A DNA stretch of 64,000 nucleotides from contig JAHRHZ010000019.1 of the NCBI GenBank assembly GCA_024137785.1, positions 49,875,755 through 49,939,754 of the forward strand, written 5' to 3'. Of this stretch, positions 5,091 to 54,980 are shown in pieces. Position 1 is the stretch's first letter. Every line of letters starts with the position of its first letter. The notes below the pieces were generated by a model that was not told the DNA's origin, did no database searches, and saw only the letters and a list, made by a program, of their open reading frames with translations. The translations under genes were made by a program, and so were the position numbers. This stretch comes from Ginglymostoma cirratum. Taxonomy: Eukaryota.

Positions 5091-6279
5091 AAATTGGTGT
5101 CTGTATGAATTTAATCAGTTTGCAATGGTGGAGTTTCTGAATCCAAGGATAGTATAAATTAGGAATAGTGATCATACAATCATTGAATATTGGTTCAATC
5201 CACTGAGCCTTTTCACTCATCAACAATATAACTCTTCTAACATCCACATCTTGATTTCTACTTTCAGACTATTTCTTATCCCTTCCCATGGTTTACTCCA
5301 AATTCTTGGAATTTAACTTCTCGGCTTCAATGTAGAATGTTACCAAGCAGATTTTGGAATTCCATGTTTTAGGCTATTCCTCATGATAGTGAAGGGAAGA
5401 TAGGTGCACTTTGTGTAAAAAGTAATGATTGAACAATAAGTTTTAGATTGGTTAGGTAGCACCACTGAAAATTACATGTCTATGCATTCAGTACAGTACA
5501 GAAACTTACAGCAGTCATCCTGGGTTATGTTTTCGTATGTTTCAAAGTCTACCAGTATCAGTGAACCTTTTCATTTATGTTTTAGTTACGTACGCTAAAC
5601 TAGTAAATGTTATAAACTTTTCAATGAAGTACCTTAGACATGGCATTGAAATATAATGGATTACTATTTCATGCATCTGAAACAAACTATTTGATCCCAT
5701 TTTACTCAGATCTACCTTGTGCAGCATCTTGTGTCAATTCACAGCATCACTGTCGGAACATGATGTAAATCTTCAAATTTAAACACAGAGGATGAAATGC
5801 CTAGTTTTCCCCATTATTAAGATCTAATCTTGAAATTGGAATCTACAAAATTACAGTTTTCAAATCTGTATGTTTCTGTGAATACATTAGGTCTTTTATA
5901 CTGGATAATAACCACTTCCCAGTTTGTTTTTGAAAGAATAATATTACCAATGTGATTATTAAATCAATAGTTTAATAAGGTTATTCTTGTTAAGAAGCTG
6001 TTAGTAGAGACAACAGACTACAGAATCTCTGTAGACTATTGTGAGATTGTGACAATACTTCACAGTTGCCTGCAGAGATTATCTAGTCTGCAGCTATCCA
6101 TTGGTTAGACATCACAACACATTCTTTTCCTTACAGCAAGAATAAAAATTGTCATTAAATTACATTCTGGAAGCAATCAACACATTCAAGTTTGTTACAT
6201 TTTATTAACATCCTTTCAATCATTGGCACATTTGCGTATTGTTAAAATTTCTTCTAAGAACGTGTACTTTCTTTCATGG

Positions 6280-13832: not shown

Positions 13833-13898
13833 ACCCCATATCTCTACAGGTGGCTGAGAAAGAAACGCCTTAATTGCTAACATTCGGAAGACTATGTG

Positions 13899-14032
13899 AG
13901 AAATCACATGACAACAGGTTATAGTCCAACAGGTTTATTTGAAAACACAAGCTTTCAGAGCCTCAGTCCTTCTTCAGGTCAGAGAGATAGCATCTGACGC
14001 AGAATTTATAAGTAAAAGATCAAATGTTCACA
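13899..14032 (-). mobile_element. PLE terminus, family B (single arm), with hammerhead-like core at 13949-13977
   Basis: Reverse complement cctgaagaaggactgaggctctgaaagcttgtgttttcaaataaacctgttggactataac; same family as 26817-27850. Confidence 0.8.
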
Positions 14033-15344
14033 CCACATGGAAAACTATCAGAGACCAGGCATTTTCTCAGCCCCAGGTAGGAGGGGCCCCTGTGGTGTCT
14101 GTGATCAGGGACTTCACCCACAGGCACAGGGAGGAACAGCAGCAGCAGACAGGGATGTGGGACAGAATGGCCCTCATTGCGCAGAAGCTGCAGCAGGACA
14201 GCGAGTCATGTGATCATCCATCTTCATGGACAGGTTGGCGGTTGTCATGGACAGCTAGGCCCAGCTCTGTCAGATTCTGCTGGAGTGGTACACACACCTA
14301 CATGCCAGTGTCGCAACCATTGACCCTCAGGAGCAAAGACATGGTGACAGAGGGACGGAGATTAGCGAGCACTCCTTTCCTCACCAGGAGACAGGGTAGT
14401 GCCAGGAGGTACCCAGTTGGAGGAGGAACCACATGCTGCCCCCTCAGGACACTTGAGAGGTGGCTGAGTCCTTCACCTCCATCCTCCCTATCCCTCTCCG
14501 ACACTTGGAAGTCACGTTGAGAAGGATCCACTTGCTTCCTGCAAGAAGACCCTTGGCATGCCTGACCCCATCTAAACACAAGCAGCCCCCAGGATCATTG
14601 AATCACATCTTTAAGGTCAATGGGCTCCACTGCTGTGCAGGCTCCCTGTATCCCTTCTACAGAACTAGGGAGTATCCTTAGGGTGCTGTGGGAAGGAATG
14701 GAAGAAGACATCACTTTGAGGCCACTTGAGTGGCATGGGTGGCAATGCATTGTACATTATTTGGCATTTTTTAAAAATAAATAGCTCTGCTATGACAATA
14801 CGTCTGTTTTTGGTCTCTCTGTTTAGCCCCGAAGGTCATTGTTCCAGCACGAGGCATCACTTCATGGCCACACAAAATGTACCATGGGTTGATGGCTGAG
14901 GCGAGAGTTTGCAGTAGTATCTAGAAGCAATAGGATCAAGGATATACAGGGACCAGTGGGTGCTGCTGACACGATTGCCCCTTGTCGCACAACAACTTTA
15001 TTCTTTCCTGAGTCTCTACGTCTAAAAGTATTGATGCTGGTGATGTCTGAACCAGGGAGGTGTGTAGCAAACGGGGGATACTGTATGAGGATATCTAAGG
15101 ATGAGGGACACCACTGGTTTGCGTTCTGGACAGTGTACAGATCGGTGTGTGATGTGCTTTCTCTTTAAGTGCCCTCACTTTGGTGGTCCTGTAGCCCCCT
15201 CGCTCACAGCTTGACACTTACTCTACTCACTCCGACTATGATCATAAACATTTTCTTTCCCTTTGCTCATTTTTGATTTCCACTATGATGGAAAGTGACT
15301 TAGTCAGTGGCTTCCAGCTCCTGTTTCTAGCTGTCAGTGAGCCA

Positions 15345-16982: not shown

Positions 16983-18830
16983 TCATAAGATAAAGGAGCA
17001 GAATTAGGCCATTTGGCCCATAATGTCTGCTCTGCCATTTGATCATGGCTGACATGTTTCTCAAAACAATTCTCCTGCCTTCAACCTGTAATCCTTGATT
17101 CCCTTACTAATCAAGAACTTCTTTCTTAAAGACCCTCAATGACTTGGCCTCTGCAGCCTCTGAGGCAATGGGTTCCACAGATTCACCACCCTCTGTCTTA
17201 AGAAATTACTCCTCATTTCAGTTCTAAAGAGTTGTTCGAAAGGTTATGCCCTCAGGTCCTAGTTTCTCCTACTAGCATAAGTGTCTTCTCTATGTCCACT
17301 TGAACCAGGTCTCTCAGCATTCTGTACGTTTCAATAAGATTCCCCCTTCATCCTTCTAAACTCTGTTGAATACAGACCTAGAATCCTCAACCGTTTCTCA
17401 TATTACAAGACCTTGACAAGCCTGGATCATTCTTGTAAACTTCCTCTGGACCCTCCAAAGCCAGCCCATCCTTCCTTAGATATAGCACCCAAAACTGCTC
17501 ACAATATTCCAAATGTGGTTTGACCAGAGCCTTATATAGCTTCAGCAATACGTCTCTGCTCTTATATTCTAGCCCTCTTGAAATGAATGCTAACATCACA
17601 TTTGCCAAGAACCTTCATGTTGACCTCAAAGAATCTGGAACCAGGACTCCCAAGTCCCTTTGTACTTCAGATTTCCAAAGCCTTTCCCCATTTAGAAAAT
17701 AGTCTACACCTCTATTTGTCCTACCAAAGTGCATAAGCTTGCACTTTCCCACATTGTATTTAATCTGCCACTTCTTTGTCCACTCTCTTAGCCTGTCCAA
17801 GTCCTTCTGCAGCTTCCCCACTTCCTCAACACTACCTGTTGCTTCATCTATCTTTGTGTTATCTACAAACTGTACCCTCAGTTCCTTCGTCCAGATTGTT
17901 AATGTTTAACCTGAATAGTAGTGGTCCCAACACTGAGCTCTATGGAACTCCACTAGTCACCAGCTGCCAACGTGAAAAAGACCCCTTTATTCCCACTATT
18001 TGCCTTCTGCCAGTCAGAAAATCACCTACCCTTGCCATTTCCTGTCCCTCACACCACAGGCTCTTATTTAACAGCTTCCTGTATGGCACCTTGTCAATGG
18101 CCTTCTGGAATCTCAGATCATATCATTTGCTCTCCTTTGTCCAACTTGCTCACTACTCCCTCAAAGAATTCTGACAGATTTGTCAGTCATGATTTCTTCT
18201 TGACAAAGCTGTGTTGACTCAGCCTATTTTTACCAGGCACTTTCAAATATTCTGCAACCTCATCTTTAGTAATGGACTCGGGAATCTTCTGAAGAACTGA
18301 TGTCAGGCTAACCGGCTGATAATTTATCACCTTCTGCATCTCTCCATTCTTAAACTGGGGTGTTATATTAGATATTTGCCAGTCCTCTGGGACCCTCCCT
18401 GCCTCCAGTGATTCCTGAAAGATCACCACAAATGCCTCCCCAATCTCCTCAGCTGTCTCCTTCAGAACTGTGGGGTGTAACCTATCTGGTCTGGGTGATT
18501 TATCCACCTTTAGATTTTCAGCTTCCCCAGCAGCTTCTCCTTAGTGATGGCCCTGACACTCACCTCTGCCTCCAACTCTCTTGAAGCTCTGGTGTGCTGC
18601 TGGTGTCTTCCATTGTGCAAAGTACCCACTCAGTTCTTTGTTATCTGTTGCTACTTCTCTAGCCTCATATCCCAGTGGTCCAGTGTCCACTCTTGCCTAT
18701 AGATTACCCTTTATACATTAAAAAAAATTCTTGCAGTCTTCTTTTGTATTACTCGCTAGCTTACCCTCATATTTCATTTTCTCTGCCTTTTTTCCTCTGC
18801 TGGTTATTAAAGGCTTCTCACAAATCTTCA
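16983..18830 (-). mobile_element. CR1 LINE, 5'-truncated, decayed
   Basis: Minus ORFs: DKSPRPDRLHPTVLKE, LQKDLDRLREWTKKWQ, LYKALVKPHLEYCEQFW. Confidence 0.92.
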
Positions 18831-22390: not shown

Positions 22391-22631
22391 AAATCTTATT
22401 GTTGGAGCTACCATTCCTCCTTTTCCATTTTGCCTATCTATTCTACATGTCAAGTGCCATGGAATATTTACATCCTAACTCTGGTCATTTTACAATAGTT
22501 ATTAGGTCAAACCTATTAATTTCTGTCTGTTATTTTATTTTATTTGTTTCAAATGCTTTACACATGCAAACTTGACACTTTTAGCTTTGACAAGTGCTGA
22601 TTTTCTATGAACTAACTTTAGTCCATAATAC

Positions 22632-22879
22632 GAGATAACAAGATGTGGGGCTGGATGAACACACCAGGCCAAGCAGCATCATAGGAGCAGGAAAGCTTGA
22701 CGTTTCGGGCCGAGACCCTTCATCAGAAAATCTGAACATTAGTGAAAATCTGATGAAGGGTCTAGGCCCAAAACGTCAAGCTTTCCTGCTCCTATGATGC
22801 TGCTTGGCCTGCTGTGTTCATCCAGCCCCACACCTTGTTATCTCGGATTCTTCAGCATCTGCAGTACCTTTTATCTCTC
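22632..22879. mobile_element. PLE-derived fold-back mini-element, family A, with 14-bp TSD
   Basis: About 95-bp inverted arms (22632-22727 / 22749-22844), 3' tail on the right arm only; TSD ttagtccataatac at 22618-22631 and 22880-22893. Confidence 0.9.
22699..22726 (-). ncRNA. Minimal hammerhead ribozyme motif (PLE type), core intact
   Basis: Minus strand CUGAUGA-A-GGGUCUCGGCCC-GAAA-CG-UC; the + arm copy (22750-22777) has GAAA changed to AAAA. Confidence 0.7.
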
Positions 22880-23909
22880 TTAGTCCATAATACCTTGGTT
22901 CTTTCCACTGCTCCTCCTGATCCACTCTGCGTATTTGTTTCCCAAACACTGCACTGCTCTCTCCTTTCCTGAGTTCTTTCTCAACCTCCATCCACTCCAA
23001 ACCCATTTGCTAGTTTGAAGCTCTATCTAATGTCCTGATTATTTTATTCATCAGATAATGGTCCCAACTAGGTTTAATTGGAACCAACCCTGACAAAGGA
23101 GCTTGGTCTTCCCTCATATCAATACTTCAGCCACACATTTAATCTTCTCAAAACTTGGCTTCCATGAGGGGCTGTATGTCATCAACAATATTCTATCCTG
23201 GGCTGTTACTAGACTCCAGTCAGAACTAGAGAACCTATGAATTTGGCACTTGCTGCAACCCAACAGGGAAGCTTTACTGTGAAATTGTGCAATCTGTGAT
23301 AACCCAAGACAAGACTGAACAAGCCCATGAACCTGGCTGATGACTCGCCAGTGCTCATATGACTCACTTCTTAAAGGAACAGTGTCCCGATATAATACAC
23401 CCCAATTATAATACAAAACCGACAGCTGCAAGATTGTGTTCAATTATAATCTATAATCTCATTACTTGGCATATCGCCTACTCTTTCATTAGCAGAAACT
23501 AGGAGATCAGCTCTCCTTCAATGGAGAGTGCAGGGCAGCATGCCATGAGCAGCACCATGCCTTCCTGAAGATGAGGCCTGGACCTAGTAGAGCTACCATA
23601 CATGACAATTTGCATGCTGGAAGCAGAATGTGAAACACACGGCTAAGAAATAACACAAGCAATGGATCAAATCCAAGCTCTGAAATACAGCCACATCCAT
23701 TCACGAATGGTGGCGAACATTTGAATGAATAACAAGCACAGGAGGCTTGATAAATGTCTCCAATTTCAACATCACATCACATCATTGACAATGCTATCAA
23801 ATGACATTTGATCAGCGATACCCTGTTCACTGGTATTCAGTTTGTTTTCCACCAAATGTTGGCCCAGCCTGCAAAGCTCACATCCACGTATGAATTAAAA
23901 AAAACCCCG

Positions 23910-25402
23910 TAAGACCATATGACAGAGAAGCAGAATTAGGCCATTTGGCCCATTGAGCATCCTCTACCCTTTGATCATGGCTGATATGTTTCTCAACCCA
24001 ATTCGCCAGCCTCTTTTAGATAACCCTTCATTCCATTACTAATCAAACTAACGCTGTTTTAAATATACTCAATGACTTGGCCTCTACAGCCTTCTGTGGC
24101 AATGAGTTAGACAAATTCACCATCCTCCAGATGAGGAAATTCCTCCTCATCTCAGTTCTAGAGGGCTGTTCCTTCACCCTGAAGCTGTGTCCCTGGGTCC
24201 TAGTCTCTCCTACAAGTGGAAACATTTTCTCCATACATACCGTATCCCGGCCTCTCAGTATTCTGTAAGTTTTAATCAGATGCCCCTCATATGTCTAAAC
24301 TCCATCAAGTACAGACCTAGACTCTTCAACTGTTCCTCATATGACAAGCCCTTTATCCTCAGGATCATTCTTGTAAACCTCCTCTGAGCTCCCTCCAAAG
24401 CCAGCACATCCATCTTTATAGATAAAGGTCCAAAACTGCTCACAACGTTCCAAATGCAGTCTGACCAGAACCTTATACAGCCTCAGCAGTATGTCTCTGC
24501 TTTTGTACTCTAAGCCCTCATGAAATTAATGTTAATTAATTGTCTTCTTAACTGGCAACTGAACCTGCATGCTAACCTTAAGAGAATCCTGAACTAGAAC
24601 TCCCACGGTCCTTTGTGCTTCATATTTCTGAAGCCTTTTTCCGTTTAGAAAATATTCTATGTCTCTATCCATCCTACCAAAGTGCATGACCTCACACTTT
24701 CCACATTGTATTCCATCTGTCACTTCTTTGCCCACTTTCCTAGCCTTTCAAGTCCTTCTGCAGCCTCCCCAGAACACTACCTGTTCTATCTTTGTGTCAT
24801 CTGCAAACTTAGCAACAAGCCCTCAGTTCCTTCATCCAGATCGTTAATGTATAACGTGAATAGTTGTGGTCCCAACACTGAGCCCTTGGAACTCCACTAG
24901 TCATTAGCTGCCATTGTGAAAAAGACACTTTATTCCTTCTCTCTGCTTTATGCCAGTCAGCCAATCCTTTAGTCATGCCAGTTCCGGCCCCTAACACCAT
25001 AGGCGCAAATCTTATTTAGCTGCCTCCTTTGCAGCACCTTGTCAAAGGCCTTCTGTAAATCCAAATGGATTACGTCCACCAGCTCTCCTTTGTCTAACTT
25101 GCTCATTAGCTCTGAATCAGCCCTATTTTACCACGCACTTCTAAGTACTCTGCAATCTCATCCTTAATAGTGGACTCTAAAATCTTCCCAATGACTGAGG
25201 TCAGGCTAACCATCCTGTAGTTTCCTGTCTTCTCCCTCCCTCCCTTCTTAAACAGAGGTGTTACATTAGCCATGAGATAGTAAGAACTGCCGACGCTGAA
25301 AAATTTTTCTGAAAGAAGGGTCCCGACCTGAAACACCAGCTCCTCTGGTGCTGCCTGGCCTGCTGTGTTCTTCCTGCTCCACACTGTGTTACATTAGCCA
25401 TG
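23910..25402 (-). mobile_element. CR1 LINE, 5'-truncated
   Basis: MANVTPLFKKGGREKTGNYRMVSLTSVIGKILES; CEVMHFGR; RTEMRRNF; tail taagaccatatgac. Confidence 0.9.
25275..25390. mobile_element. PLE family A mini-element (short left tail plus right arm) within a 17-bp direct repeat
   Basis: gtgttacattagccatg at 25258-25274 and 25386-25402; degenerate core ctgaaagaagggtcccgacctgaaaca. Confidence 0.8.
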
Positions 25403-26318: not shown

Positions 26319-26426
26319 AAGTTAACACAGTGTGGAACTGGAGGAACACAGCAGGCCAGGCAACATCAGAGAAGCAGGAAAGCTGATGTTTTGGGTCGGA
26401 CCCTTCTTCAGAAATCTTACTATCTC
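26319..26426. mobile_element. PLE family A mini-element (one arm plus 11-nt opposite tail)
   Basis: Arm ends cccttcttcagaaa then cttactatctc; flanked by ccattttcaact (26307-26318) and ccatttttcaact (26426-26438). Confidence 0.8.
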
Positions 26427-26816: not shown

Positions 26817-27340
26817 GGTATGGAGGTGCCAGTGTTGAAGAGGGTGGACCAGGTCAGAAATCACACAACACCGGGTTATAGTCCAACAGTTTTATTTGAA
26901 AACACAAGCTTTCAGAGCCTCTGTCCTTCTTCAGGTGTAGTGAGAGAGGTAGTATCAGACACACATCAGTAAAAGACCAAAGGTTCATACCATTGATGAG
27001 GATGTACTAAACAAACCCAAGATGCTGTTAAATCTTTAATCATTTAGAAGGTTTTAATTGATTAATATGTATATGTAAATCCCCAAATTCCCTTCAAGTC
27101 ACTGTCCTGAGAGAACTAAAGGTTTTATCACTGCAAAGAAGAGGGGACATTTTAGGTCAGACAATGCATGTTAGGTGTGAGACCTTGTTTAGAATCTGTT
27201 TGTGTTTTGCTTTGGAGTCAGATTAGTTTTATTTCTAAAGTAGGAATTTATAAAACACCATATCAAACGACTGTTTATAAATTGTGTGCTTTTTGAATGA
27301 AATAAAATGTATCTGCAAATATAAATTCACAGCATAGATT

Positions 27341-27378
<38 letters not shown>

Positions 27379-27850
27379 AGGACGGAGGAGAGAGAGTGTG
27401 TGCGAGTGAGGACAAGGGAGAGAGAGTATGTGTGAGTGAGAGGGGGAAGAGAGATTGGTACATTACTGACGACCGACATTACTATAAAGCAGTTTCACAG
27501 AAAAGAGGAAAAAGAAACCACTGATGTAAACTGATTGTTTATTCTGGTTAGAAAGCCTGAGGACCGTGGCAACTGAAACTTAGTCCTCCTGAAAGGAATT
27601 CGGGGATTTACATATACATATTAATCAATTAAAACCTTCTAATTGATTAAAGATTTAACAGTATCTTAGGTTTGTTTAATTCATCCTCATCAATGGTGTG
27701 AACCTTTGATCTTTTACTTATAAATTCTGTGAAGGATACTATCTCACCCACTCACACCTGAAGAAGCATTGAGACTCCGAAAGCTTGTATTTTCAAATAA
27801 ACCTGTTGGACTATAACATGGTGTTGTGTGATTTCTGACTTTGTCCATCC
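26817..27850. mobile_element. PLE family B fold-back element, about 1 kb, about 255-bp inverted arms
   Basis: 26840-27097 is the inverted complement of 27593-27850; hammerhead-like cores at 26906-26934 (-) and 27758-27786 (+); TSD-like cctatcacat/cctatcgcat (26807-26816, 27849-27858). Confidence 0.85.
27344..27377. repeat. (GT)17 microsatellite inside the PLE body
   Basis: Directly visible dinucleotide run. Confidence 0.95.
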
Positions 27851-29342
27851 TATCGCATTTTGTGGCTCAGGGCTATCATCTCTATTTCCACATCGGCAGA
27901 ATTGACTGCGATGTCTTGAGGGCATTGTGTAACTGTAGATGACAGAAGGGAATAGGCCTTACCTCTCCACTGTGGAGATGATGAAATGGGAGATATCTTT
28001 GAAACAGAGTTACTGAAGTTGAGATAGTACCAGCAGCAATTACCACAGTCCAAATTCAACCCCTACGAACACTAGCATCACCTAATGTTTGCAAAGCAAC
28101 ACCGGCAGTTTCACAAAAAACGATGTCAAGCAGTGTTTCTGCTGTAGTACCATTGACCCAACAACAGGCAGGATCTGCTACTGACACGTGTTAAAGATTG
28201 GGGAAAGCAAGCACTTTGCTGGTGTTTGTCATTCATCAGAGAATTCAACTACAGCGACCGATCCCATGTGCCACGTACACATACCACAGCGAAAGTGCAA
28301 GGGAATGAGTGACCTCTGTCCTCTCTTTTGGACACAGCAAGCTGTCACAATTTATAAATACCATTATTGACTGTTGGATGCAGATGCTCTTATTGTTACA
28401 GGAGTACCCATCAAAGTTATGGGAGGCAAAACGTTCATCAACTTTCATGACTGCCTTGTTCTCTGCAAACCAGGGAAACCAAAAAATGTTCTTTTACAAC
28501 AGTAACAAACTGCTGAAGGTTTGTGGAATGTTTGCAGTTCCAATCTAATTCAAAAACACCAGAATGATTGTTATATTTTAAGTCAAAACCGGATAATGTA
28601 ACACATTTACCTGGACGCAACAAAAACTTATTCAGTCAAGTTTCAATCATTGTCTAACATAAACCGTCAATAAAGTAGAAGAATCAATGCTTATCCCTAT
28701 ACATATCGCAAATTAAACACGTGAAAGAGAACACTCTCAAATTTCAGGAAAACAGAAAAAAATAGATTTCTCGGCAGAGATTGACTTTAGGAGGCAAAAA
28801 ACACCTTGCTCAATGGGTTATTCTTGGAGGCAAAAGAATTAAAATTTAGGATGCTGTGAAATTGTTGCTAAGGTAACAGCTTTGTGCATGCTTCCAATTA
28901 AATTCCTCAATAACTTTCCTGAGGGTTGAGTGAAATTTGAGTGAGCCAGCACAGGATCATTGATCAAAATGGTATTCAACTTCTCAAAAAAATTTTGCAC
29001 TTCCTGACCCCACCGTCTTGGCTTTTTTACACAAGCCCATTATTGGAGAAGTTATAGTACTAATATTTTGTGCGAACTTGCAATAAAAGTCAGGCATCCC
29101 ACCCCTCCCCAAAAATCTCATTATTTCTCATTTAGTTTAAGAGCATGGAACTCCACTAATGCCCGTACTTTTGCTGGTCTTAGCAGCCCTTCTCCTTGTC
29201 CTAGGATGTGCCCTAAGTCAATTACTTGCAAATTCGCTTTCGGGAAAGTTAATCATCAAGTTAACCAATTATAGTTTCCCAAACAAGGCTTTCGGTCGTT
29301 GTAAGTGATCCTCCCAGGTGTCACTGCATACCACTACATCAT

Positions 29343-29831
29343 TGAATTAAGTTGAATCATTTATTGTCATGTGTATTCAGTATAAAATGCAGTGAAAAGT
29401 GTGTACTGTCGCCATGCATAGGCACCATTCTCATTGACTTAAGACAAAAAATAAAGAAAGATAACTTAAAGAGAGTCTAACTTTTCCTTCTCTGCTGCTA
29501 CAGTCCTGCTCCGGGCTTCACCAGCCCACACCATGCCGCTGCCAGAGTCCTGCTCCGGGCTTCACCAGCCCACATCATGCCGCTCCCAGAGTCCAGCTCC
29601 GGGCTTCACAGGCCGGCCGGCTGACTCTGTAGCCATGCTGCCTCTGAAGATTTCGCCACCGCTCCAGAGTCCATCGAAGTCACCTTCCTACTGAAAACCT
29701 CTCTTTGTCGAGTAAATAAACAAAACTGAGAAAAGAAGAAGGGGAAGAAAGGAAAAAGAAAAGAAGTGGACAAAGAGGACGAGCCTGGGCACAGGAGCCT
29801 GGAAGCTGCCTACTCTGCTGCCACTATCTTG
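29343..29831 (-). mobile_element. Non-autonomous retroposon with Rex1/Babar-like termini
   Basis: Reverse complement begins caagatagtggcagcagagtaggcag..gctcctgtgcccaggctcgtcc and ends cacttttcactgca..aatacacatgacaataaa + ttcaa-type tail. Confidence 0.7.
29502..29609. repeat. 44-bp tandem repeat, about 2.5 units
   Basis: agtcctgctccgggcttcaccagcccacaccatgccgctgccag starts at 29502, 29546 and 29590. Confidence 0.9.
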
Positions 29832-30811: not shown

Positions 30812-30923
30812 CTGAGATAACAAGCATGGGGCTGGATGAACACAGCAGGTCAAGCAGCATCATAGGAGCAGGAAAACTTGACGTTTCGGGCCTAAACCCT
30901 TCATCAGAAACCCTTTCTGATGA
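30812..30923. mobile_element. PLE family A fold-back element cut by the assembly gap; intact hammerhead core at 30880-30907 (-)
   Basis: Left arm, then tcatcagaaa-ccc-tttctgatga (hairpin apex) immediately before the Ns. Confidence 0.85.
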
Positions 30924-31323
30924 NNNNNNNNNNNNNNNNNNNNNNNNNNNNNNNNNNNNNNNNNNNNNNNNNNNNNNNNNNNNNNNNNNNNNNNNNNNNN
31001 NNNNNNNNNNNNNNNNNNNNNNNNNNNNNNNNNNNNNNNNNNNNNNNNNNNNNNNNNNNNNNNNNNNNNNNNNNNNNNNNNNNNNNNNNNNNNNNNNNNN
31101 NNNNNNNNNNNNNNNNNNNNNNNNNNNNNNNNNNNNNNNNNNNNNNNNNNNNNNNNNNNNNNNNNNNNNNNNNNNNNNNNNNNNNNNNNNNNNNNNNNNN
31201 NNNNNNNNNNNNNNNNNNNNNNNNNNNNNNNNNNNNNNNNNNNNNNNNNNNNNNNNNNNNNNNNNNNNNNNNNNNNNNNNNNNNNNNNNNNNNNNNNNNN
31301 NNNNNNNNNNNNNNNNNNNNNNN
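30924..31323. other. Assembly gap (400 N)
   Basis: Run of N. Confidence 0.99.
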
Positions 31324-31408
31324 CAAATAAACCTGCTGGACTGTAATCTGGTGTTGTGTGACTACTGACCTTGTCCATCCCAGTCTAACACCAGCACCTC
31401 CATATCAT
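31324..31408 (+). mobile_element. PLE family B 3' end and tail
   Basis: caaataaacctgctggactgtaatctggtgttgtgtga..ccagtctaacaccagcacctcca. Confidence 0.8.
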
Positions 31409-32154: not shown

Positions 32155-32905
32155 TCTAGATGTGGCATGACCAGAGCCTTATACAGCCTCAGAAGTGTAT
32201 TTCTGCTCTTGTATTCTAGCTCTCTTGAAATGAATGCTAACATTGCATTTGTCTTCCTAACTGCCAATTGTACCTGCATGTTAACCTTAAGCGATTCCTG
32301 AACCAGGATTCCCAAAATCCTTTCGTGCTTCAGATTTCTAAAGTGTTTGCCCATTTAGAAAATAGCCTACATCTCTATTCTTCCTAACAAAGTGCATAAC
32401 CTCACACATTCCCACATTGTATTCCACCTGCCACTTCTTTGTACGCTCTCCTAGCCTGTCCAAGTCCTTCTGCAACCTCCCCACTTCCTCAACACTACCT
32501 GTCCCTTCACCTATCTTTGTGTTATCTGCAAGCTTAGCAACAAAGTCCTTAGTTTCTTCATCCGCATTGTTAATGTAGAATGTGAGTGGTTGTGGTCCCA
32601 ACACTGATCCCTGCTGAATTCCACTAATCACCAGCTGCCATCCTGAAAAAGACCTTTTCGTCCCTACTCTTTGCTTTCTGCCAGCCAGCCAATCCACTAT
32701 TCATTCCAGTTCCTTGCCCCTAACACCATGGTTCCTTATCATATTTAGCAGCCTCCTGTGCGGCACCTTGTCAAAGGCCTTCTGGAAATCCAAATAGATC
32801 ACATCCACTGACTCTCCTTTGTCGAACGGACTCTTTACCTCCTCAAGGAATTCTAACAGATTCGTGAGGCATAGCATCCCCCTGTTGAAATGGTGCTGAC
32901 TCAGC
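32155..32905 (-). mobile_element. CR1 LINE RT fragment
   Basis: VDVIYLDFQKAFDKVPHRRLL; QGSVLGP; LADNTKIG; LQKDLDRL. Confidence 0.9.
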
Positions 32906-32917
32906 ACTAATCCAAAT

Positions 32918-33240
32918 GCGGGGAAAGGGATATCCACTGTGAACGTGGCTCTTGGCACAATTGCACAGCCCCCTGACTGATGTGATGCCACCCATACCTC
33001 AAACAGAGCCACTGTGGAGACGTAATAGGGTTGTTGGAGATGTGGTTCCATTGTTTGGGGTCTCTCAAGTATAGATTCGATACAGTGCACTACATTAACC
33101 TGGTGTGCTGCACTCTGCACTATTGGAATATGCAACATGGCAATGTCCCAGATGCAGAGGAACTGGGCAAATGGAACAGTCTTCCAAAGACGACGATGAG
33201 GATACTGGGGAGGAGGGAGCCCTCCTATTGCAGGCCTGAT
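32918..33240 (+). pseudogene. Harbinger transposase C-terminal fragment
   Basis: KGYPL*TWLL; HTSNRATVE; GLLEMWFHCL; LVCCTLHYWNMQHG (HARBI1 C-terminal motifs), paralogous to 3310-3570. Confidence 0.75.
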
Positions 33241-33464
33241 CTTGGAACAAAGCTCAGCTAGACAGAATCTCACTAACACCCATTTCCAATTTATGAGAGC
33301 CAGCCTGTTAAACTAACAATAACACCGATGTGAATTCAATTGAGAACAAAATGAGCAAATTAATTTAAATGCAGGGTGAAATTTAGAGGTCCACCATCAA
33401 AGCTAGGAGTTAAAGCATTTGTGAGACATGGTAGTCACGCTGGAAATAACCACTAATGACCATC

Positions 33465-34482
33465 ACAAGACCAAGAGACATGGGAAAAGATGGGGTGGCA
33501 CGGTGACTCAGTGGTTAGCACTGCTGCCTCACAGCACCAGGGACCTGGGTTTGATTCCACCCTTGGGCAACTGTATGTGTGGAGTTTGCACATTGTCCTT
33601 GTGTCTATGTGGGATTCCTCTGGGTATTCTAGTTTCATCCTACAATCCAAAGATGTGCAGGTTAGATGGATCGGCCGTGCTAAGTTGCCCAAGGTGTGTA
33701 GATGGATTAGCCATGGGAAATGCAGGGTTACAGCGATAGGGTGGGATGCTCTTTGGAGGGTCAGTGTGGACTACATGGACCAAATGGCGTGCTTCCACAC
33801 TGTAAGGATTCTAAGAATTAGGCCATTCAGCCCATCGGGTCTTCTCTGCTATTTGACCATGGCTGATATGATTCTCAACACTATTCTCCTGCCTTCTGTT
33901 TGTAACTCGAGCTCCATACCAATCTGTAACCTATCTATCTCTTAAATACACTCAATGACTAGGCCTCCACAGCCTTCTGTGGCGATAATTTCCACAGTTC
34001 CACCACTGTCTGGCCGAATGATTGTCACTTCATTCTGTCGGTGTGGTCTTGGATCCTAGTCTCTCCTACTAGTGGAAACATCTTCTCCACATCAGTCTGC
34101 TCAATAATCTGCAAGTTTCAATAAGATCCCTCCTCATTCTTCTAAACTCCATCGAGTACAGACCCAGAGTCCTCAACCGCTCATCATGTGATAAAGCCTT
34201 CATCACCAGGATCATTCTTATAAACCTCCTCTGGCTCCCTTCCAACGCCAATGCATCCTTCCTTAGATATGGGGCCCAAAACTGTTCAGAATATTCAAAA
34301 CGCAGTCTGATCAGAACCTTGTACAACCTCAGCAGTACATTTCTGTTCGTGCAGAACCATTGCATTTACCTTCCTAAAATGAACCTGCATGTTAACCTTA
34401 AGAGAATCCTGAACTTGGACTCCCAAGTCCCTTTGTGCTTTAGATTTCTGAAGCCTTTCCCCATTTAGAAAATAGTCTACAT
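33465..34482 (-). mobile_element. CR1 LINE 3' fragment with a SINE inserted in its tail
   Basis: LLRLYKVLIRLRFEYSEQFWAPYLRKD..RRMRRDLIE; tail split around 33493-33813. Confidence 0.88.
33493..33813 (+). mobile_element. HE1-type V-SINE
   Basis: gggtggcacggtgactcagtggttagcactgctgcctcacagcaccaggg...cttccacactgtaaggattcta. Confidence 0.9.
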
Positions 34483-36139
34483 TTATATGATCACCATCAA
34501 ACACAGTTCACAAATTACCAGACATAAATGTGACTACGACTACCCTTGAACGAAATTGTCTACCTTTTTCAAATGATTATTGTCTGAGGCACTATTTTTA
34601 GTTGGTGAATAAATCTTTCATCTCACTATACTGCATTGTTTAATGACACAGAAGGCACAATGTGTAACATTGTTTCTGTGAAGTTGAACACTAGAGTTAA
34701 ATTTATTATTTATGCTTCTGAAAATAAACTATTAAAATATGCTGCGCCTCTCACTTTTGAATAAAGAAAGGGATGTAGTGTTTTGATAATTGCATTGTGC
34801 ACGTTGTCGACTTAAGGCTCCCATACGAATGTACCAGAGAAGGGAGTCTGGAAAGAGAGTAAAGAAATCCAGTATTTTAGCAATATCGACAATTCTGCTT
34901 CTGACTATGTTTCATTCTTCCACCCATAAACTTTGTAATAATACAGAAGTTTGGAATAATAACTGGACTGTGTTAACCACAACTGGGGTTTGCTGGGACT
35001 GTGAAAATGTTCATGTTTAATGATAAACTTCCAGGGCAATAATGTTTAAGCACACAGCTGAGGTGGGGGCGGTGAAGTAGGGATGATGTTGACACAAAGG
35101 GAATGGAGTTCTGCTCACATTTTCCATAATGCAATGTGATAACTGATTGAAAAAAAATAGGTTTTATGATTCAGATTTTAACAAATTTCATGTTGTGGTA
35201 GGTGCTTGACTTTACCCCAGTATTGTACTTGGGCTTTTACAAGTTTTAATGCACACGTGATTGTTTCTTTTCTGCATGAAAGCAATTCACCTAAAATTCA
35301 AAACAACATAGCTTTTTTTGTATAAGATAGAGAAATACGTTGAAGAATATAATTAATGGATTACAGTTGGAATGTTCATATATTCAGTTATTTTGATGCC
35401 AGTCTCTCCAGATTCTTCACTGTTGGTTTAAGTGTTCTCACAAGTATCCAAGCAGCACATTTAAAGTTTGCTTAATGCTGGTTTCTCTTTGTTGTCATAT
35501 CTATCTCAGCAGTTCTTTTATAGTCGGTTAACATGGAGATATTTGCCATCAAAGAAAACGTTGGCATCAGAAACATGCTTCTGTTTAAAAGTGATAAGCA
35601 ATGCCTCCATGAAAAAGGTTCAATCCTTGCTTTGTGCCATACTGGCTGATCTCAGAACATTAGGCTGACTTGGAATAGAAATGTATTTGTGGAGAAGAAA
35701 GATAAGCTACTGGTTCTTAGTATGTAATGACATCTGGTGGAAAGAGTTTGCCATTGACTGGCCAATAAGTTGGCTTGATGCCCACATCTCATGAATGGTT
35801 GACAACAAAGATGTTGGAGCAAAAAAGTAAAACCGAAATGTGATAAGAACCATGTGTGTTTACCATGTGGTTGGTGAACTGTAGCTTAATATAGCTCACT
35901 GTGCCTCCTTTTAATTTGAATTATTCCAGCCAAAGCAGACTAATTTTTGTTTAAACAGGTGAAAAGACAAAAGAATATTAACAAGAAGAAAGTGTCAATA
36001 AATCTCCACTGTTTATTGTTGGGGCCCATTGCTCAAGTCTTGCTGCTGGCTCAAAGACAAGTCAGAGCAAGCATTTGTGATGGCTCCTGCATTTGAATAG
36101 TTGGCGATGTATTGTCTATGCTGACCAGCAGGGCAGCGG

Positions 36140-37671: not shown

Positions 37672-39888
37672 GTAACTTTATGTATTTTCAATATCATTTG
37701 TTGCAAGTTTGGATTCTTTTTGCATTAGTTTTGCATTAGGTTTTCTGTGTGTCTGAAGTTAATAATTAACCTCTAAGTCTTTCTGCATTCATGGTGATTT
37801 TTTCTAAAGCAGGTCTTGAGGCTTAAATTTTGAAATTAATCCTTTCGATGAACAACTAATGGATTCTTGTTACTTTAGTTTTTTTTGGACCCAGCATGAC
37901 TGTGGGTCAGTTAGCCTGACATCGGTCTTTGGTGAGATTTTAGAGTCCATTATTAAAGAAGAGATCGCGAGTACTTGGAAGTGCATGGTAAAATAGGGCT
38001 GAGTCAGCGTGGCTTCATCAAGGGAGGCCATGCCTGAAAAATCTGTTAGAATTCTTTGAAATAATGACCAAGTTAGACAAAGGAGAGTTAGTGGACGTGA
38101 TCTATTTTGATTTCTAGAAGGCTTTTGACAAGGTGCTGCATGGGAGCCCGCTAAATGGGGTAAGAGCCCATGGTGTTAGAGGCAAGGTTCTGGCATGGAT
38201 AGTGGATTGGCTGACTGGCAGAAAGCAAAGGGTGGGCATAAAGGGTTTTTTTTCAAGATGGCAGCCAGTGACCAGCAGAATTCTGCAGGGTTCAGCGCTG
38301 GGACCACAACAATTCACATTATATATTGGCAGCTGGAATACAACGTGGGAAATTGAAAGGTAGTAAGAACAGAGGCATAGACTATTCTTTTTAAATGGTG
38401 GAAGACTTCAGAAATCTGAACCACAAAAGGGACTTGGGAGTTCTAATTCAGGGTTCTCTTAAGGTTAACATTCAGCTGGCAGTTAGGTAGGCTAATGCAA
38501 TGTTAGCATTCATTTCAAGAGGGTTAGAATACAAGAGCAAAGATGTACTGCTGAGGCTGTACAAGGCTCTAGTCAGACTGCATTTGGAATATTGTGAGCA
38601 GTTTTTGGTCCTCCATCTAAGGAAGGATGTGCTGGCATTGAAGAGATTCCAGAGAAGGTTCACAAGAATGATCCCAGGGATGAAGGGCTTGTCACATGCG
38701 GAGTGGTTGAGGGCTCTGGTTCTGTATATGATGGAGTTTAGAAGGATGAAGGGTGGGGAACCTCACTGAAACTTTCAGAATACTGAGAGGCCTGGATAGA
38801 GTGAATGCGGAGAAGATATTTCCACTCGTAGGAGAGACTAGGACCTGAGGGCACAGCCTCAGAATGAAGACACAACTTTTTAGAAATGAGATGAGGAGGA
38901 ATTTCTTTTGCCAGAGGTTGGTGAATCTGTGGAGCTGATTGCCACATTGGGCTGTGGATGCGAAGTTATTGAGTGTATTTAAGACAGAGATGGATCGGTT
39001 CTCGATTAGTAATGGGATCAAGGATTACAGGGAAAAGGCAGGAGAATGGGGTTAGGAAACATAGCAGCTATGATTGAGTGGTGGAGCAGGCTCAATGGGC
39101 TGAATGGCCTAATTCTGCCCCTACATCTCATGGTCTCCTAGCGTGCTAAATTACAGGGTCACTAGGTTTGTAACAGGTTTCTGGAATTTTTTTAAGCTTA
39201 AGGGAATAAGTAAGTCTTTTTAAGTGTTTTACTTTGTGTTTTGAGCCATTCTGTGAAATCCTTGGATGAAAATGGCTGCATAAACTCATGCCCCTGAGAA
39301 AGGAAGGATGTAGTGAACTATGATAATGTAGAGAGAAGAATTAGAGTTGGTCCCAGACCAGCAGTATTGAGATGAAATCCTGAAGAGCTTACTTAAAGCT
39401 AAATATATCTTAAGCCTAGTTGTGTAATAGTTCTAGAAAGAAGTGATGTGATGTTCCAGTTAAACACAAATGACTCAAACCTATTGAAGTGTTAGTGATA
39501 GAGATTTTGGAATGAGTCTCGTATGAGTGGTGTTTTGGACACTATATAAGGTATGTTTTTGGTTACTGTAATAGTGTATGTTTTGGGCACTGTACTAAAA
39601 CTGTTTTACTTTTCAATTTACATGGGAATGTTTTGTGTTAATGTGACTATACTTTTACAGTGTGTGTAAAATCTTTGAATTTGTGTTATAAGTTGATCTT
39701 TTGATTTATTCTACTTTATCTGCATTTCTTTTGCTAATAAACTTCTGTGTTATTGTTAAAATAATTCTGCAACATTACATGCTTATGGTTCAGCAAGAGA
39801 CCGCTTTGTTAAGATCAAAACAAAACAAACAAGATCTATCAAGCCAGGTTTCAACTGGGATCTGACTTTTTCAGCTAGGTTCATAAAA
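37672..39888 (+). mobile_element. Probable solo LTR interrupted by a CR1
   Basis: TG start (tgtaac), T-rich body, AATAAA at about 39736, U5-like end gatctatcaagccagg..gggatctgact..cataa; boundaries uncertain. Confidence 0.35.
37905..39136 (+). mobile_element. CR1 LINE fragment
   Basis: HGVRGKVLAWIVDWLTGRKQRV; LYKALVRLHLEYCEQF; tail aatggcctaattctgcccctacatctcatggtct. Confidence 0.92.
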
Positions 39889-40578: not shown

Positions 40579-40760
40579 TCAGAGATAGTAGGAACTGCAG
40601 ATGCTGGAGAATCTGAGGTAACAAGGTGTAGAGCTGGATGAACACAGCAGGTCAAGCAACATCAGAGGAACAGGAAGGCTCCGGAGTGAGGAGGGTAACT
40701 TCTTGCTCCTCTGATGCTGCTTGGCCTGCTGTGTTCATCCAGCTCTACACCTTGTTATCT
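40579..40760. mobile_element. PLE family A fold-back element lacking the ribozyme core, 14-bp TSD
   Basis: Inverted arms around ccggagtgaggagggtaacttc; TSD catgaattattagt / catgaaatattagt (40565-40578, 40761-40774). Confidence 0.85.
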
Positions 40761-43914: not shown

Positions 43915-44476
43915 ACTTTACTCTTGGATGTGGGCATCGCTGACTGAGTTGGCATTTGTTGGTTTTTGACAGAACTGAGTGACTTGCAAGGCCATTTCAC
44001 AGAGCAGTTAACAGCCAGTCACATTGCTGTGGGATAACAAGGTGTAGAGCTGGATGAACGCAGCAGGCCAAGCACCATCAGAGGATCTGGAAGGCTGACG
44101 TTTCCGGCCTAGTCCCTTTTTCTGAAGAAGGATCTAGGCCCGAAATGTCAGCCTTCCTGCTCCTCTGATGCTGCTTGGCCTGCTGTGTTCATCCAGCTCT
44201 ACACCTTGTTATCTCAGATTCTCCAGCATCTGCAGTTCCTACTATCTGTGAAACATTGCTGTGGGTCTGGATTCACATGTAGGTCAGATTTGGTAAGGAT
44301 AGCTATTACACATTAGTGAGAAGGTGTGTCATGTGACTTCTCAATATGTTCTTAATTTCAGTTCATTTGAATTCTACCATCTGTTGCAGTGGGCTTTGAA
44401 CCCAGGTCCCTAGAACATGAGCTGGGGCCCTAGATTATTCGCTGATTGACAGTACTGCTAGGCCATTGCCTCCCCA
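43915..44476 (-). mobile_element. tRNA-headed SINE family 2, interrupted by a PLE hairpin
   Basis: ggatgtgggcatcgctg (tail, reverse complement) ... acattgctgtgggtctggattcacatgtagg ... ttgaacccaggtccctagaacat. Confidence 0.8.
44034..44252. mobile_element. PLE family A fold-back element, 13-bp TSD, core at 44122-44149 (+)
   Basis: TSD acattgctgtggg at 44021-44033 and 44253-44265; ctgaagaaggatctaggcccgaaatgtc. Confidence 0.9.
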
Positions 44477-47774: not shown

Positions 47775-47892
47775 AGTCAGAAATCACGCGACACCAGGTT
47801 ATAGTCCAACAGGTTTATTTGAAAATGCAAGCTTTCGGAGCCTCAGTCCTTCTTCAGGTATCCACCCCAGTTCAACGCCTGCACCTCCACAT
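47775..47892. mobile_element. PLE family B mini-element, core at 47829-47857 (-)
   Basis: Arm ends ccttcttcaggta then the opposite tail tccaccccagttcaacgcctgcacctccaca; reverse complement CUGAAGA-A-GGA..UCC-GAAA-GC-UU. Confidence 0.8.
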
Positions 47893-48304
47893 GTGGGGAC
47901 AGAGAGGAAGGGAACTGTTTTTTCTTGCCAGAGGTAGAAGCAGAAAGTTCAAAAGAACTTCAAGAACAATTGGGACTTCAAGCTTTTGCACGGCAAACCT
48001 GACCCATGTAACGACCTGGATTCCTGACCTTCTCGTTTCTTTGACATGAAAAAAGTCACATATTTACACTTGCCATCTGTGACACATGAATAGAAGTTCT
48101 AATTTCAGCTGCACTGCACTGACAATGACATTGTGGACCTACAGCTTTAGTGGCTAACACATCCAGTAATGATTCATTTACTTAGCCTGCACATGTAGGC
48201 TTGTGCTGGTGTCATTAGCTTGGACAACAAGTAGAATCTTTTGTAAGCCACCCTCCTGCCAGCTAGAGATCTGGCCAGTGAGATCTCTCTATTTTCTGTT
48301 CTAG

Positions 48305-49750
48305 GGAATGCTGGCTGAATTAAATTTCACGTAAGCACTTGAACGTGACAGGCCAGCAGTGGTGGGGGTCTTGGCGGGAGTGGGGGTGGGGAATGGGTGT
48401 AGGCTGAAGAGAAGAGTGGAGGAGGAGTTTGGGAAGTGGAAGGGAGGGACTGTCTGGATTAAGGACCCCAGGCACAGTCAGGCTTGCAAAGAACTGTCAG
48501 CTAAGTGACAGCACCACTGGAGGAGCTAGTAACTGCTGTTGGCGTGACACCTACTCAAGGTCGAGGTTCCTATGCCAGAGGTGTGTGTTGCAGACAGGCT
48601 GTGGGGAGCACAGGATAGAGAGATTGGCAGTAAGGGCAAGCAGGTGGCTCAGACTAGTCGACTATTCCTGATGCTAGGTCCCTCGATCAGGCACTTTGAT
48701 TTAGGGAAACACCCCCACCTCAAGAGCCCACGAGCAAACATGCCAGGATTTGCTTGTCATACTCCCAGATGGTGAGCTCCTTATCTGCCATTAAGTTAAT
48801 ACCAATTGTCATGGGATGAAGCCTTTAGTTGGGCATTAATTGCCAATTTAAGGATCTCAATTACTGGTGAGGTGGGAAGGCAGTCCTTTCCATCTTTGCC
48901 TTAACAAGGCTGGAAGTAAGAAAGTGGTGGGCTTCTCTTTCACTATTCTTCCACCTGATTAAATGGCCTCTCAGCACTAAACACACCATTGGGGAGGACA
49001 CAGGATTTTATCCAGCATGTGATAAACTGAAATGGGTAGAACTATCTGGACCCCTATTGGTGGGAGTGGGCCTGTGAAATGCCCCAGGCAGCCTTGCCAT
49101 CACCCAGCTACCCAATGTGCCCTGTCTGCCATTTTATGGTGTTCTTAGGTGAGGATTGGGACGGGTCTCCCACTCTTGGTCCCACTTGAAGTCCTTACAT
49201 GGCCAATAAAGAGCTACTTCCTGCTTGATCCCAGAGTTGATGCTTATAGCAAGAGGCCAGATTTACAAGGTGACCTGTCACAGTCTCAGGAAAGTGGAAT
49301 GGGGTTCACCTCACTCAAGGGCCTCTCTTTCCACTTCAAGTGAACCTCGTAAGGTCTCCTCTGTGTGGGTATTTCCCCCCCTCCTGCCCTCACCATGAAT
49401 GTTCCCAATCCCTCCAGCCCCTCCCTGACCATCCCCATTTCTCCCAACTGTTGGATTCCCCCATGCATATTTGGTCCCAGATTCTGGGGATAAAATTCGG
49501 CCACTGCTTGACAATCCCAGCCCCGGCCAATGGTGCAATAGGACTCTGCTGAGATTATAGAGCATCCAGTCAATCTGATTGATTGACAGCTCTCTGAGGG
49601 GGATAGCCTCCTGAGTGAGGCTTCAAGAACTGCCTTAGCTAATTAAAACTCCTCCAAGCATTAAAAGGTCAAGGGGCTGCTGTGATCAGTAGGATCACAT
49701 TCTTTACTGGCTGTATGGGACGAGGGGGGAGAACACCAGCAAACTTCACC
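48305..49750. repeat. Degenerate GC-richer interspersed repeat(s), unclassified (MITE-like)
   Basis: GC shift with recurrent ttaattg, ccaat and taaaattc motifs; no coding signature. Confidence 0.3.
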
Positions 49751-50006
49751 ATTTGAATAATCCTCTTCATTCTGACATGTAGTGATTAGTAGGTCAGCCA
49801 GTGAACCTTATAGACTATGGGCTCTCTAATTGGGGCTGTTAACCTGGTCAAATGAGGAAGTCCTGGCTGACAAATATAAACAAGAGAGTCAGAGGTTCGA
49901 TTCCCTTTACATAGGCCTAGCAGGGGTTTGTGGTCCATTATTACAACAAATTTACATCTGTAAAGGTGTTGGTGGAACTTCCTGACTCCAAATATGAATG
50001 CAATAC

Positions 50007-50179
50007 TTGAGATAAAAGGTACTGCAGATGCTGGAGAATCCAAGATAACAAGGTGTGTTATCCTGATCAAATCCTGATCAGAATTTCTGATGAAGGGTCT
50101 AGGCCCGAAACGTCAAGCTTTCCTGCTCCTATGATGCTGCTTGGCCTGCTGTGTTCATCCAGCCCCACACCTTGTTATC
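50007..50179. mobile_element. PLE family A mini-element inserted in the Gypsy RNase H, perfect 13-bp TSD
   Basis: atgaatgcaatac at 49994-50006 and 50180-50192. Confidence 0.9.
50087..50114 (+). ncRNA. Minimal hammerhead ribozyme motif, core intact
   Basis: CUGAUGA-A-GGGUCUAGGCCC-GAAA-CG-UC, with upstream UUU able to pair with downstream AAG (short stem I). Confidence 0.7.
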
Positions 50180-52983: not shown

Positions 52984-53075
52984 GTAACACAGTGTGGAGC
53001 TGGAGGAACACAGCAGGCCAGGCAGCATCAGAGAAGCAGGAAAGTTGACGTTTCGGCTTGGGACCCTTCTTCAGA
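52984..53075 (-). mobile_element. PLE family A single arm, core at 53047-53074
   Basis: Reverse complement ctgaagaagggtcccaagccgaaacgtcaac. Confidence 0.8.
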
Positions 53076-53496
53076 TTGGAACGGAAGAGATGGTGGGAAG
53101 GTCACAGGGTGAGTTTTATAGGCCCCAGCCTGTAAATACATTGATGGGAAGCCGTAATCTCACTCACTTAAATATTTGCAGACACAGACTTAGGTAGAAC
53201 AGCTTAACTGTCTAGAATGCCTAGTTGTAGAAAGAATCCTGTAACTAAAAACAATACTGTTTTTGTTCACACATCGACTAAAGTGGAATGTAACCAGAAC
53301 TGAAGCATAGAAAGTCCATTTGGCTTTCTGTACTGGGGCTGCTCTTTATATCAGCAGTTTTATTTAGTCCCACATTTCAGTTATTTTGGTGTGTCCCTAT
53401 AAGCTTCCCTTTTCAAATATCCTTTGAAAATTATTTATAGGATCAGCATCCATAGACTTTTCAGGAATTTCCAGATCCCTGATAATTCTTTGAATT

Positions 53497-54980
53497 AAAA
53501 TAGTGATGGAAAAGGACAGACTAGATCTAAAAGATGAAGTTCTAAATTGGAGGAAGGCCAATTTTGATGGTAATAGGCAAGGACTTTCAAAGGTTGATTG
53601 GTGGCAGATGTTCACAGGTAAAGGGATGGCTGGAAAATGGGAAGCTTTCAAAAATGAGATAACAAGAGTTCAGTGACAGTATGTTCCTGTTAGGGTGAAG
53701 GGCAAGGCCGATAGGCGTGGGGAATGCCGGATGACTAGAGAAATTGAGGTTTTGGTTAATAATAAGAAAGAACTATATATCAGGTATAGATAGCAGAAAT
53801 AGAATTATTCCCGAGGAGAGTATAAAGGCAATAGGAATATACTTAACAGGGAAATCAGGAGGCAATAAAAGCAACAAGAGAGAGCTTTGGCAAATAGGGT
53901 AAAGGAGAATCCAAAGGGATTCTACAAATACATTAAGGAAAAAAAGATAACTAGGGAGAGAATAAGGCCCCTTAAAGATTAGCAAGACCACCTACAAGTG
54001 GAACCACAGAGATGGGGGAGATACTGAATGAGTATTTTGCATCAGTGTTTACTGTAGAGAAGGATATGGGAGACAGAGAACATGGGGAAATAAATAAAGA
54101 CATATTGAAAAATGTCCATATTTCAGATGAGGAGGTGCTGAACGTCTTAAAATGGAGAGAGGTGGGTAAATCCCCAGGACCTGATCAGGGTACCCTAGAA
54201 CTCTATGAGAATCTAGAGAAGCGATTGTTGGGCCCCTTGCTCAGATATTTGTATCATCGATGGCACCAGGTGAGGTGCCAAAAGACTAGATGTTGGCGAA
54301 TGTGGTGCCACTAGTTAAGAAAGGCAGTAAGGAAAATCTAGGGAACTATAGGCTGATGAGCCTGATATCAGTGGTGGGCAAGTTGTTGGAGGGAATCCTG
54401 AGGAACAGGATTTACATGTATTTAGAAATGCAAGGACTGATTAGGGATGGTCAACATGGCTGTTTACATAGGATATTGTTTCTCATTAATTTGATTGAGT
54501 TGTTTGAAGAAGGGTAGGGGATTGCGGTGGCACGGTGGCTCAGTGATTAGCACCGTTGCCCCAGGGACCTGGGCTCAATTCCACCCTTCGGGAGAATGTC
54601 TGTGTGGAGTTTGCTCATTCTCCCTGTGTCTGCGTGGGTTTCCGCCAGGTGCTCTTGTTTCCTCCCACAGTCCAAAGATGTGTAGGTTAGGTGGATTGGC
54701 CATGCTATATTACCCATAGTGTCCAGGGGTATGTAAATTAGGTGGATTAGCCATGGGAAATATAGGGTTACAAGGAAAGGGTAGGATGATGGGACTGTAT
54801 GGGATGCTCTTCAGAGGGGCAGTATGGACTGGTTGGGCTGAATGGCCTGTTTCCACACTATATGGATTCTATGATTGATGAGGGCAGAGTGGCGGACGTG
54901 ATCTATATGGATTTCAGTAAGGCATTCGACAAGCTTCCTCATGGTAGACTGGTTAGCAAGGTTAGAGCGCATGGAATACC
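53497..54980 (+). mobile_element. CR1 LINE copy A (endonuclease-RT linker to early RT)
   Basis: MGEILNEYFASVFT; KSPGPD; NYRLMSLISVVGKLLEGILR; YMDFSKAFDKLPHGRL. Confidence 0.9.
54524..54873 (+). mobile_element. HE1-type V-SINE nested in a CR1
   Basis: gcggtggcacggtggctcagtg...aatggcctgtttccacactatatggattctatg; gattg on both flanks. Confidence 0.9.

Follow-up and report, generated by a model that had tools for sequence, protein, structure and literature searches.

Short inverted hammerhead-bearing insertions in Ginglymostoma cirratum DNA are probably truncated copies of Penelope-type elements

A hairpin-forming insertion flanked by direct repeats raises the question of what it was that moved. 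In a 64,000-nucleotide stretch of Ginglymostoma cirratum DNA (the window), a first-pass annotation had recognized such an insertion at 22618-22893 and had offered two readings of it and its relatives: a replicating non-coding family mobilized in trans, or extremely truncated insertions of Penelope-type elements (PLEs). We found that the insert proper (22632-22879) consists of two inverted 95-nt arms with a 35-nt tail on one of them. It is enclosed by a perfect 14-bp target-site duplication (TSD), 22618-22631 being identical to 22880-22893 as annotated, and in a chance test a score of 12 was reached by none of 2,973 random position pairs. The tail-less arm (22632-22726, minus strand; element positions +1 to +95 from hammerhead C3) belongs to family A, subfamily A1, and contains an intact minimal type I hammerhead motif (22699-22726, minus strand) that matches a strict descriptor and the published PLE consensus, in line with the annotated core in each arm. 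The tail-bearing arm (22750-22844, plus strand) differs from it at 4 of 95 nt. The single core substitution noted earlier in its hammerhead (22750-22777, plus strand) is G12A at 22770. It is of the CpG-transition type and replaces a conserved, catalytic base of the core. The PLE-type tail, described before as roughly 35 nt and confined to one arm, measures exactly 35 nt and is present at this end only (22845-22879, plus strand). A locus-specific apex filler (22727-22749) separates the arms and is made up of a small fold-back and 12 nt (22734-22745) identical to the minus strand at 22212-22201, 420 nt upstream. Complementarity of the arms is 95% (22627-22727 with 22749-22849), and the type-example RNA has a predicted fold of -188 kcal/mol (z -24), a stability that none of 200 shuffled sequences attained.

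BLAST and profile searches of the 64-kb window identified 13 loci, of which eight belong to family A, itself divided into three subfamilies, and five to family B; there were no additional copies at E 0.05. These loci make up 4.4% of the window bases and bear out the earlier density of about one per 5 kb. The size given before, about 250 bp, fits 22618 only, as the 13 spans range from 82 to 1028 bp and the two-armed inserts from 107 to 1028 bp. The listed loci do not form one group, for the two families are unrelated and have no match longer than 11 nt in common, that one lying inside the hammerhead core. An arm tree supported A3 (98) and, weakly, A2 (72), and did not resolve the pairing of arms within loci.

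Subfamily A1 further includes 30812 and 50007. The former (30812-30923), annotated as a lone arm, is in fact a hairpin interrupted by the N gap at 30924-31323, with an intact-motif arm on the minus strand, an apex and the start of a second arm before the sequence ends. The latter (50007-50179) joins the tail and about 15 nt on the minus strand to a full tail-less intact-motif arm on the plus strand; this arm and the tailed arm of 22618 match at all but 1 of 93 nt, while the architectures of the two inserts differ. Subfamily A2 comprises a hairpin with no hammerhead at 40579-40760 and a hairpin at 44034-44252 with a right-side tail and a left arm that begins within the core. In A3, 25275-25391 pairs a tail fragment (minus) with a long tail-less arm (plus) at an A5/T5 junction, 26319-26425 pairs a long tail-less arm (minus) with the final 11-12 nt of the tail (plus), and 52984-53080 (minus) is a lone tail-less arm. 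Family B is represented by a lone tail-less arm reaching -57 at locus 13899 (13896-14038, minus), by a 1-kb inverted insertion at 26817-27844 whose tailed (minus) and tail-less (plus) arms have sequence in common to -161, by a tailed arm adjoining the assembly gap at 31324-31405 (plus) that the first listing had missed, by an intact-motif tail-less arm (minus) with a tail fragment (plus) at locus 47775 (47776-47893), and by a hairpin with a left-side tail at 59784-59983. Thus 25275, 26319 and 47775 are each one long arm with a tail fragment and not hairpins, and at four loci a long arm is paired with little beyond a tail. At 26817 the two arms are separated by a spacer of about 490 nt (27097-27589) that includes a 30-bp repeat and a stretch of (GT)17; it may be either a 3' region of the element or captured DNA. 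The 400-N assembly gap has a family A hairpin apex at its left and a family B tailed arm at its right, and hairpins may have caused the break in assembly. The 50007 insert sits in a decayed remnant at about 49200-50900, presumably of an LTR retrotransposon, with an ORF (50320-50682) that has no Pfam match.

Duplicated target sites were graded strong at five loci, moderate at three and weak or absent at five. Earlier, seven related loci had been credited with TSDs of 10-17 bp. Perfect repeats were confirmed at 25275 (15-17 bp), 44034 (13 bp) and 50007 (13 bp), which with 22618 make up the perfect 13-17 bp class; the others are imperfect, with one mismatch in 14 bp at 40579, 9 bp exact or 12 bp with an indel at 26319, and two mismatches in 14 bp at both 26817 and 59784, a score that 3.7% of random pairs also reach. 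The class described as weak or lacking a TSD stands, with a weak 10-bp repeat at 13899 and nothing returned by the TSD finder at 52984, 30812 or 47775, the last having an imperfect one by eye. TSD base composition was unremarkable (63% AT versus 59%). We also looked for empty sites in paralogous flanks at ten loci (all but 50007, 30812 and 31324), eight of which were uninformative. At 44034 the 13-mer occurs once in each of two paralogous host repeats; this is the state expected of an empty site and therefore supports the TSD. At 25275 the host LINE is not continued in the right flank beyond the insert. At two loci the TSD start overlaps the tail-less end by about 6 nt (25275, 25258-25274 and 25386-25402; 26817, 27840-27858). 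The overlap may reflect primer-template microhomology; for Poseidon PAc of Anolis carolinensis, priming without homology has been reported (PMC11167929).

Together these features point to the second of the two original readings. Each locus is probably a one-off, extremely 5'-truncated insertion of an endonuclease-bearing (EN+) PLE, two PLE families having contributed. An inverted truncated copy of variable length, a tail at one end only, a TSD and a terminal minimal hammerhead form the published PLE signature, and all are found here along with junctions that differed at all ten loci examined. Published work treats inverted truncated copies in which one end has a tail of 30-40 bp as typical of PLEs (PMC8557442), reports the same structure flanked by TSDs of 9-10 bp and with palindromes at the junction (PMC3846280), and regards dual minimal hammerheads on opposite strands 100-700 bp apart as probably truncated PLEs (PMC4209133). 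New PLE insertions in Chlamydomonas have a median length of 128 bp (PMC9977147). The Anolis PLE protein, a predicted dimer, cuts and extends both target strands in vitro, and its two RT start sites mark off the tail (PMC11167929).

From this two-strand cleavage and the two initiation sites described in those papers, an integration route can be proposed. The PLE protein would nick the two target strands about 12-15 bp apart, giving rise to the TSD. Reverse transcription would be primed twice, by one 3' end at the RNA's tail-end initiation site and by the other 3' end at a site about 35 nt upstream of it, so that both ends of the insert would be outward-pointing PLE 3' termini, one of them tailed. 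The cDNAs would stop early, mostly just beyond the hammerhead core, with the tail-primed cDNA frequently blocked in the tail or just past it, and their ends would be joined in place through untemplated A's, microhomology, fold-back or captured local DNA. The resulting hairpin would be a dead-end product that decays neutrally, with the hammerheads as passengers. All nine two-armed inserts have one tailed end, at +114 to +131, and one tail-less end, at +82 to +96; this has a probability of 0.5^9 = 0.002 if ends are independent, the rule being partly circular in that the tail was defined from the same loci. Our inference is that each of the two PLE initiation sites is used by one of the nicked strands. 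As for joining, the A5/T5 junction of 25275 suggests untemplated A's on both cDNAs. The 12-nt match in the apex of 22618 was exceptional, since 0 of 269 random 3-kb regions reached even 11 nt, and the filler is possibly a templated insertion made during end joining; the match is post hoc, lies inside a common short repeat and was found for one of six apexes tested. Against the truncated-PLE reading stand the lack of an RT or GIY-YIG sequence linked to either family in the searches made, a tight 5' boundary in family A that random truncation does not predict, the missing LINE continuation at 25275 and a sample of 13 loci.

That boundary is the basis of the alternative that survives best, which shares the integration route and differs in the template alone, so that it is compatible with truncated PLE insertion. 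It holds that family A inserts were copied from a short non-autonomous monomeric RNA, a SINE-like dependant of a PLE. In its favour, 9 of the 15 family A arms, at seven of eight loci, start 1-5 nt upstream of C3, a boundary beyond which no arm of the family carries common sequence (uniform-null P about 1e-7 per locus). In four of seven matching database gene models the match begins at the same boundary, which may there be a predicted splice site, and Chlamydomonas has non-autonomous PLEs (PMC8557442, PMC9977147). Against it, three of six family B arms stop at the boundary too, although others reach -57 and -161; stops despite longer templates favour a general stop or the 5' end of the RNA over a short element. 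We consider a short template unlikely. Drosophila Penelope has a 75-nt intron, the end of which maps to helix I, and its start site is 46 nt upstream of that intron, which leaves a start site exactly at the family A boundary only a possibility. One locus behaves differently: at 40579 the start of the left arm coincides exactly with the predicted cleavage site (+29/+30), and that of the right arm lies no more than 3 nt away.

Taken jointly, the inserts could be read as densely spaced fossils of dual priming by PLEs, with strictly one initiation site per strand, cDNAs that mostly end at the RNA 5' end or 1-5 nt upstream of the core, and a minority, represented by 40579, that end at the cleavage site. 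We put this forward only tentatively, as a possibility with less than even chances. If it is true, the run-off at 40579 would count as evidence from the genome for in vivo cleavage by PLE minimal hammerheads and for integration of the cleaved RNA, and in its strongest form family A would be a SINE-like PLE dependant of about 130 nt. No title or abstract matching the end-position and one-tail patterns was found in our literature search, whose scope did not extend to subscription papers, Repbase or Dfam, and "twin priming" had no occurrence among the papers listed.

A coding partner was sought in the window and in protein databases. The searches made found no RT or GIY-YIG linked to family A or B; truncated copies would contain neither. 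Pfam gave no matches in any of the three frames of 26935-27600 in the long family B insert, and a supposed likeness of one of these frames to a GIY-YIG C-terminus was set aside. Among 20 of the 26 ORFs of at least 120 aa (the other six being gap-filled), Pfam detected no GIY-YIG and two RVT_1 matches (32704-33312 and 54790-55323), both away from the inserts; decayed PLE coding remnants may still lie elsewhere in the window. The A2 arm at 44122-44247 (plus strand) is an open frame of 42 codons from the hammerhead core through the tail; the frame is closed in A1. In a search for longer proteins containing this frame, seven of nine candidates matched, all of them short gene models of 80-132 aa with no RT and no endonuclease. 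The PAc ORF likewise begins in the hammerhead (PMC11167929).

A different route to two arms would be a single priming, in which one cDNA folds back and copies itself into the second arm. Small apex palindromes at 22618, 30812 and 50007 are what this route would leave, and junction palindromes were taken as signs of self-priming in PMC3846280. Yet the arms at 25275, 26319 and 47775 have little or no sequence in common and those at 50007 about 15 nt, which excludes fold-back at four of the nine two-armed loci, where the arms are not copies of each other. Likewise, all four arms shorter than 60 nt are tailed, and three have little or no sequence in common with their partners; they cannot be copies, and two separate primings are needed. 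Fold-back also gives no reason for the constant stop at the tail boundary. As a general explanation it is improbable, and dual priming of a PLE RNA accounts for these loci better.

The hairpin itself is not the mobile unit. That it is a replicating non-coding element, retrozyme- or MITE-like and mobilized in trans, was the other reading first proposed, and 22618 does look the part, being self-contained and bounded by a TSD; the arms of a locus share one subfamily, and 13 copies in 64 kb is a high density. Against this, junctions or apexes differed at all ten loci examined, also inside A1, A2 and A3, and no two inserts had the same pair of arm lengths. The earlier inference that each TSD marks an independent integration is supported. 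No tandem array was found at any locus. A different apex in every copy had been named at the outset as the mark of independent truncation products, and in this window we regard a replicating hairpin as very improbable.

The state of the hammerheads bears on the same question. The strict descriptor matched seven motifs in the window, compared with 0.06 per window in 100 shuffles, and the motifs fit the published consensus for PLE minimal hammerheads (PMC4209133 supplement), in agreement with the original identification. A hammerhead in each arm held less generally, since the descriptor accepts seven of the 15 arms extending to the start of the core (three of nine in family A, four of six in family B) and 40579 has no motif at all. 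Rfam returned eight matches in the window at E<=1 and no hammerhead family among them, a miss that is expected because the minimal motifs have no helix III. The two motifs of an insert are on opposite strands, so that one transcript would contain one motif, held within a duplex of about 95 bp. Forcing the hammerhead fold carries a predicted penalty of about 58 kcal/mol in the whole insert and 7-14 kcal/mol in an arm alone, and self-cleavage by the whole hairpin is thus unlikely on this model. Across seven family A arms the first two helix II pairs are kept in all seven, with no compensatory changes, an uninformative pattern as regards covariation. Two-strand cofolding did not give a dimer hammerhead as its minimum, by a method unable to represent that fold.

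Identity with metazoan non-LTR retrozymes was rejected. Like the present inserts these are non-coding, PLE-related and on a scale of 150-300 nt, with a type I hammerhead, but they form head-to-tail tandems in which two same-strand hammerheads give rise to circular RNA (PMC7761336; bioRxiv 10.64898/2026.07.22.740005), whereas the loci here are head-to-head and variable, with motifs on opposite strands and no tandem array. A Class II MITE with terminal inverted repeats has a negligible chance and was likewise rejected, for although the arms are inverted and TSDs present, TSD length varies (about 12-15 bp), the 35-nt tail makes the ends asymmetric at nine of nine two-armed loci so that no symmetric terminal repeats exist, interiors are not conserved, and the arms bear the PLE hammerhead consensus.

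Inverted, tailed, TSD-bounded PLE stubs are an already described kind of insertion and no new mobile element. EN+ PLEs (Penelope/Poseidon and Neptune; PMC3846280, PMC8557442) have the same head-to-head termini, one-end tail of 30-40 nt, TSD, junction palindromes and terminal minimal hammerhead. The present inserts differ in that nearly all are just the last 95-130 nt with no ORF, in that their 5' ends cluster at the hammerhead boundary, and in that no autonomous partner is linked to them. The motifs resemble the minimal hammerhead of Cervera and De la Pena 2014 (PMC4209133) in the CUGANGA core, the extra nucleotide before helix II, a G-C first pair, the absence of loop III and a U-rich upstream sequence; the palindromic remnant of helix III is ACGU in family A and AGCU in family B, the latter as in the Chrysemys row of that paper. 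They differ from it in that helix I of family A has just 2-3 bp and most copies are decayed. PAc (PMC11167929) likewise has two 3' ends separated by the tail, and its cleavage site lies 26 nt after the core-internal ATG, compared with a predicted 25 nt here. PAc is autonomous and was studied in vitro, and that paper, as far as examined, does not treat short hairpin inserts and saw no RNA reads that end where cleavage occurs.

The proposed route also has a counterpart in another class of element. Twin priming of LINE-1, in which both target strands prime on the RNA, leaves a 5' inversion within a TSD. Its second priming is internal and variable in position, whereas the second site proposed here is fixed about 35 nt from the first.

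Annotators may take such stubs for MITEs, retrozymes or miRNA precursors. Five of the eight Rfam matches fall on inserts (four miRNA families and one sRNA family, including 59837-59963, 44062-44184 and 40647-40730), all below gathering scores, and hairpin matches of this kind probably give rise to false annotations. With one insert in every 5 kb, a very large number of them is to be expected across the genome, and counting their end positions genome-wide would test both dual priming and cleavage in vivo; how PLEs insert and what their hammerhead does are open questions (PMC11167929, PMC4209133).

The window as a whole consists of animal DNA rich in repeats, among them decayed ones that bear RT. 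Copies of the latter, which we take to be of CR1/L2 type, are 63-86% identical and lie at 16984-18371, 23912-25269, 32155-32827, 34127-34488, 38062-39136 and 53495-56105. A mir-216 precursor at 6015-6089 (minus strand) scored 56.7 bits, its gathering score being 53.5, and was the one Rfam miRNA in the window above its cut-off. Near-perfect tandem duplications were also present at 57180-57362 (94 bp, 98%) and 29494-29609 (44 bp, 2.6 copies).
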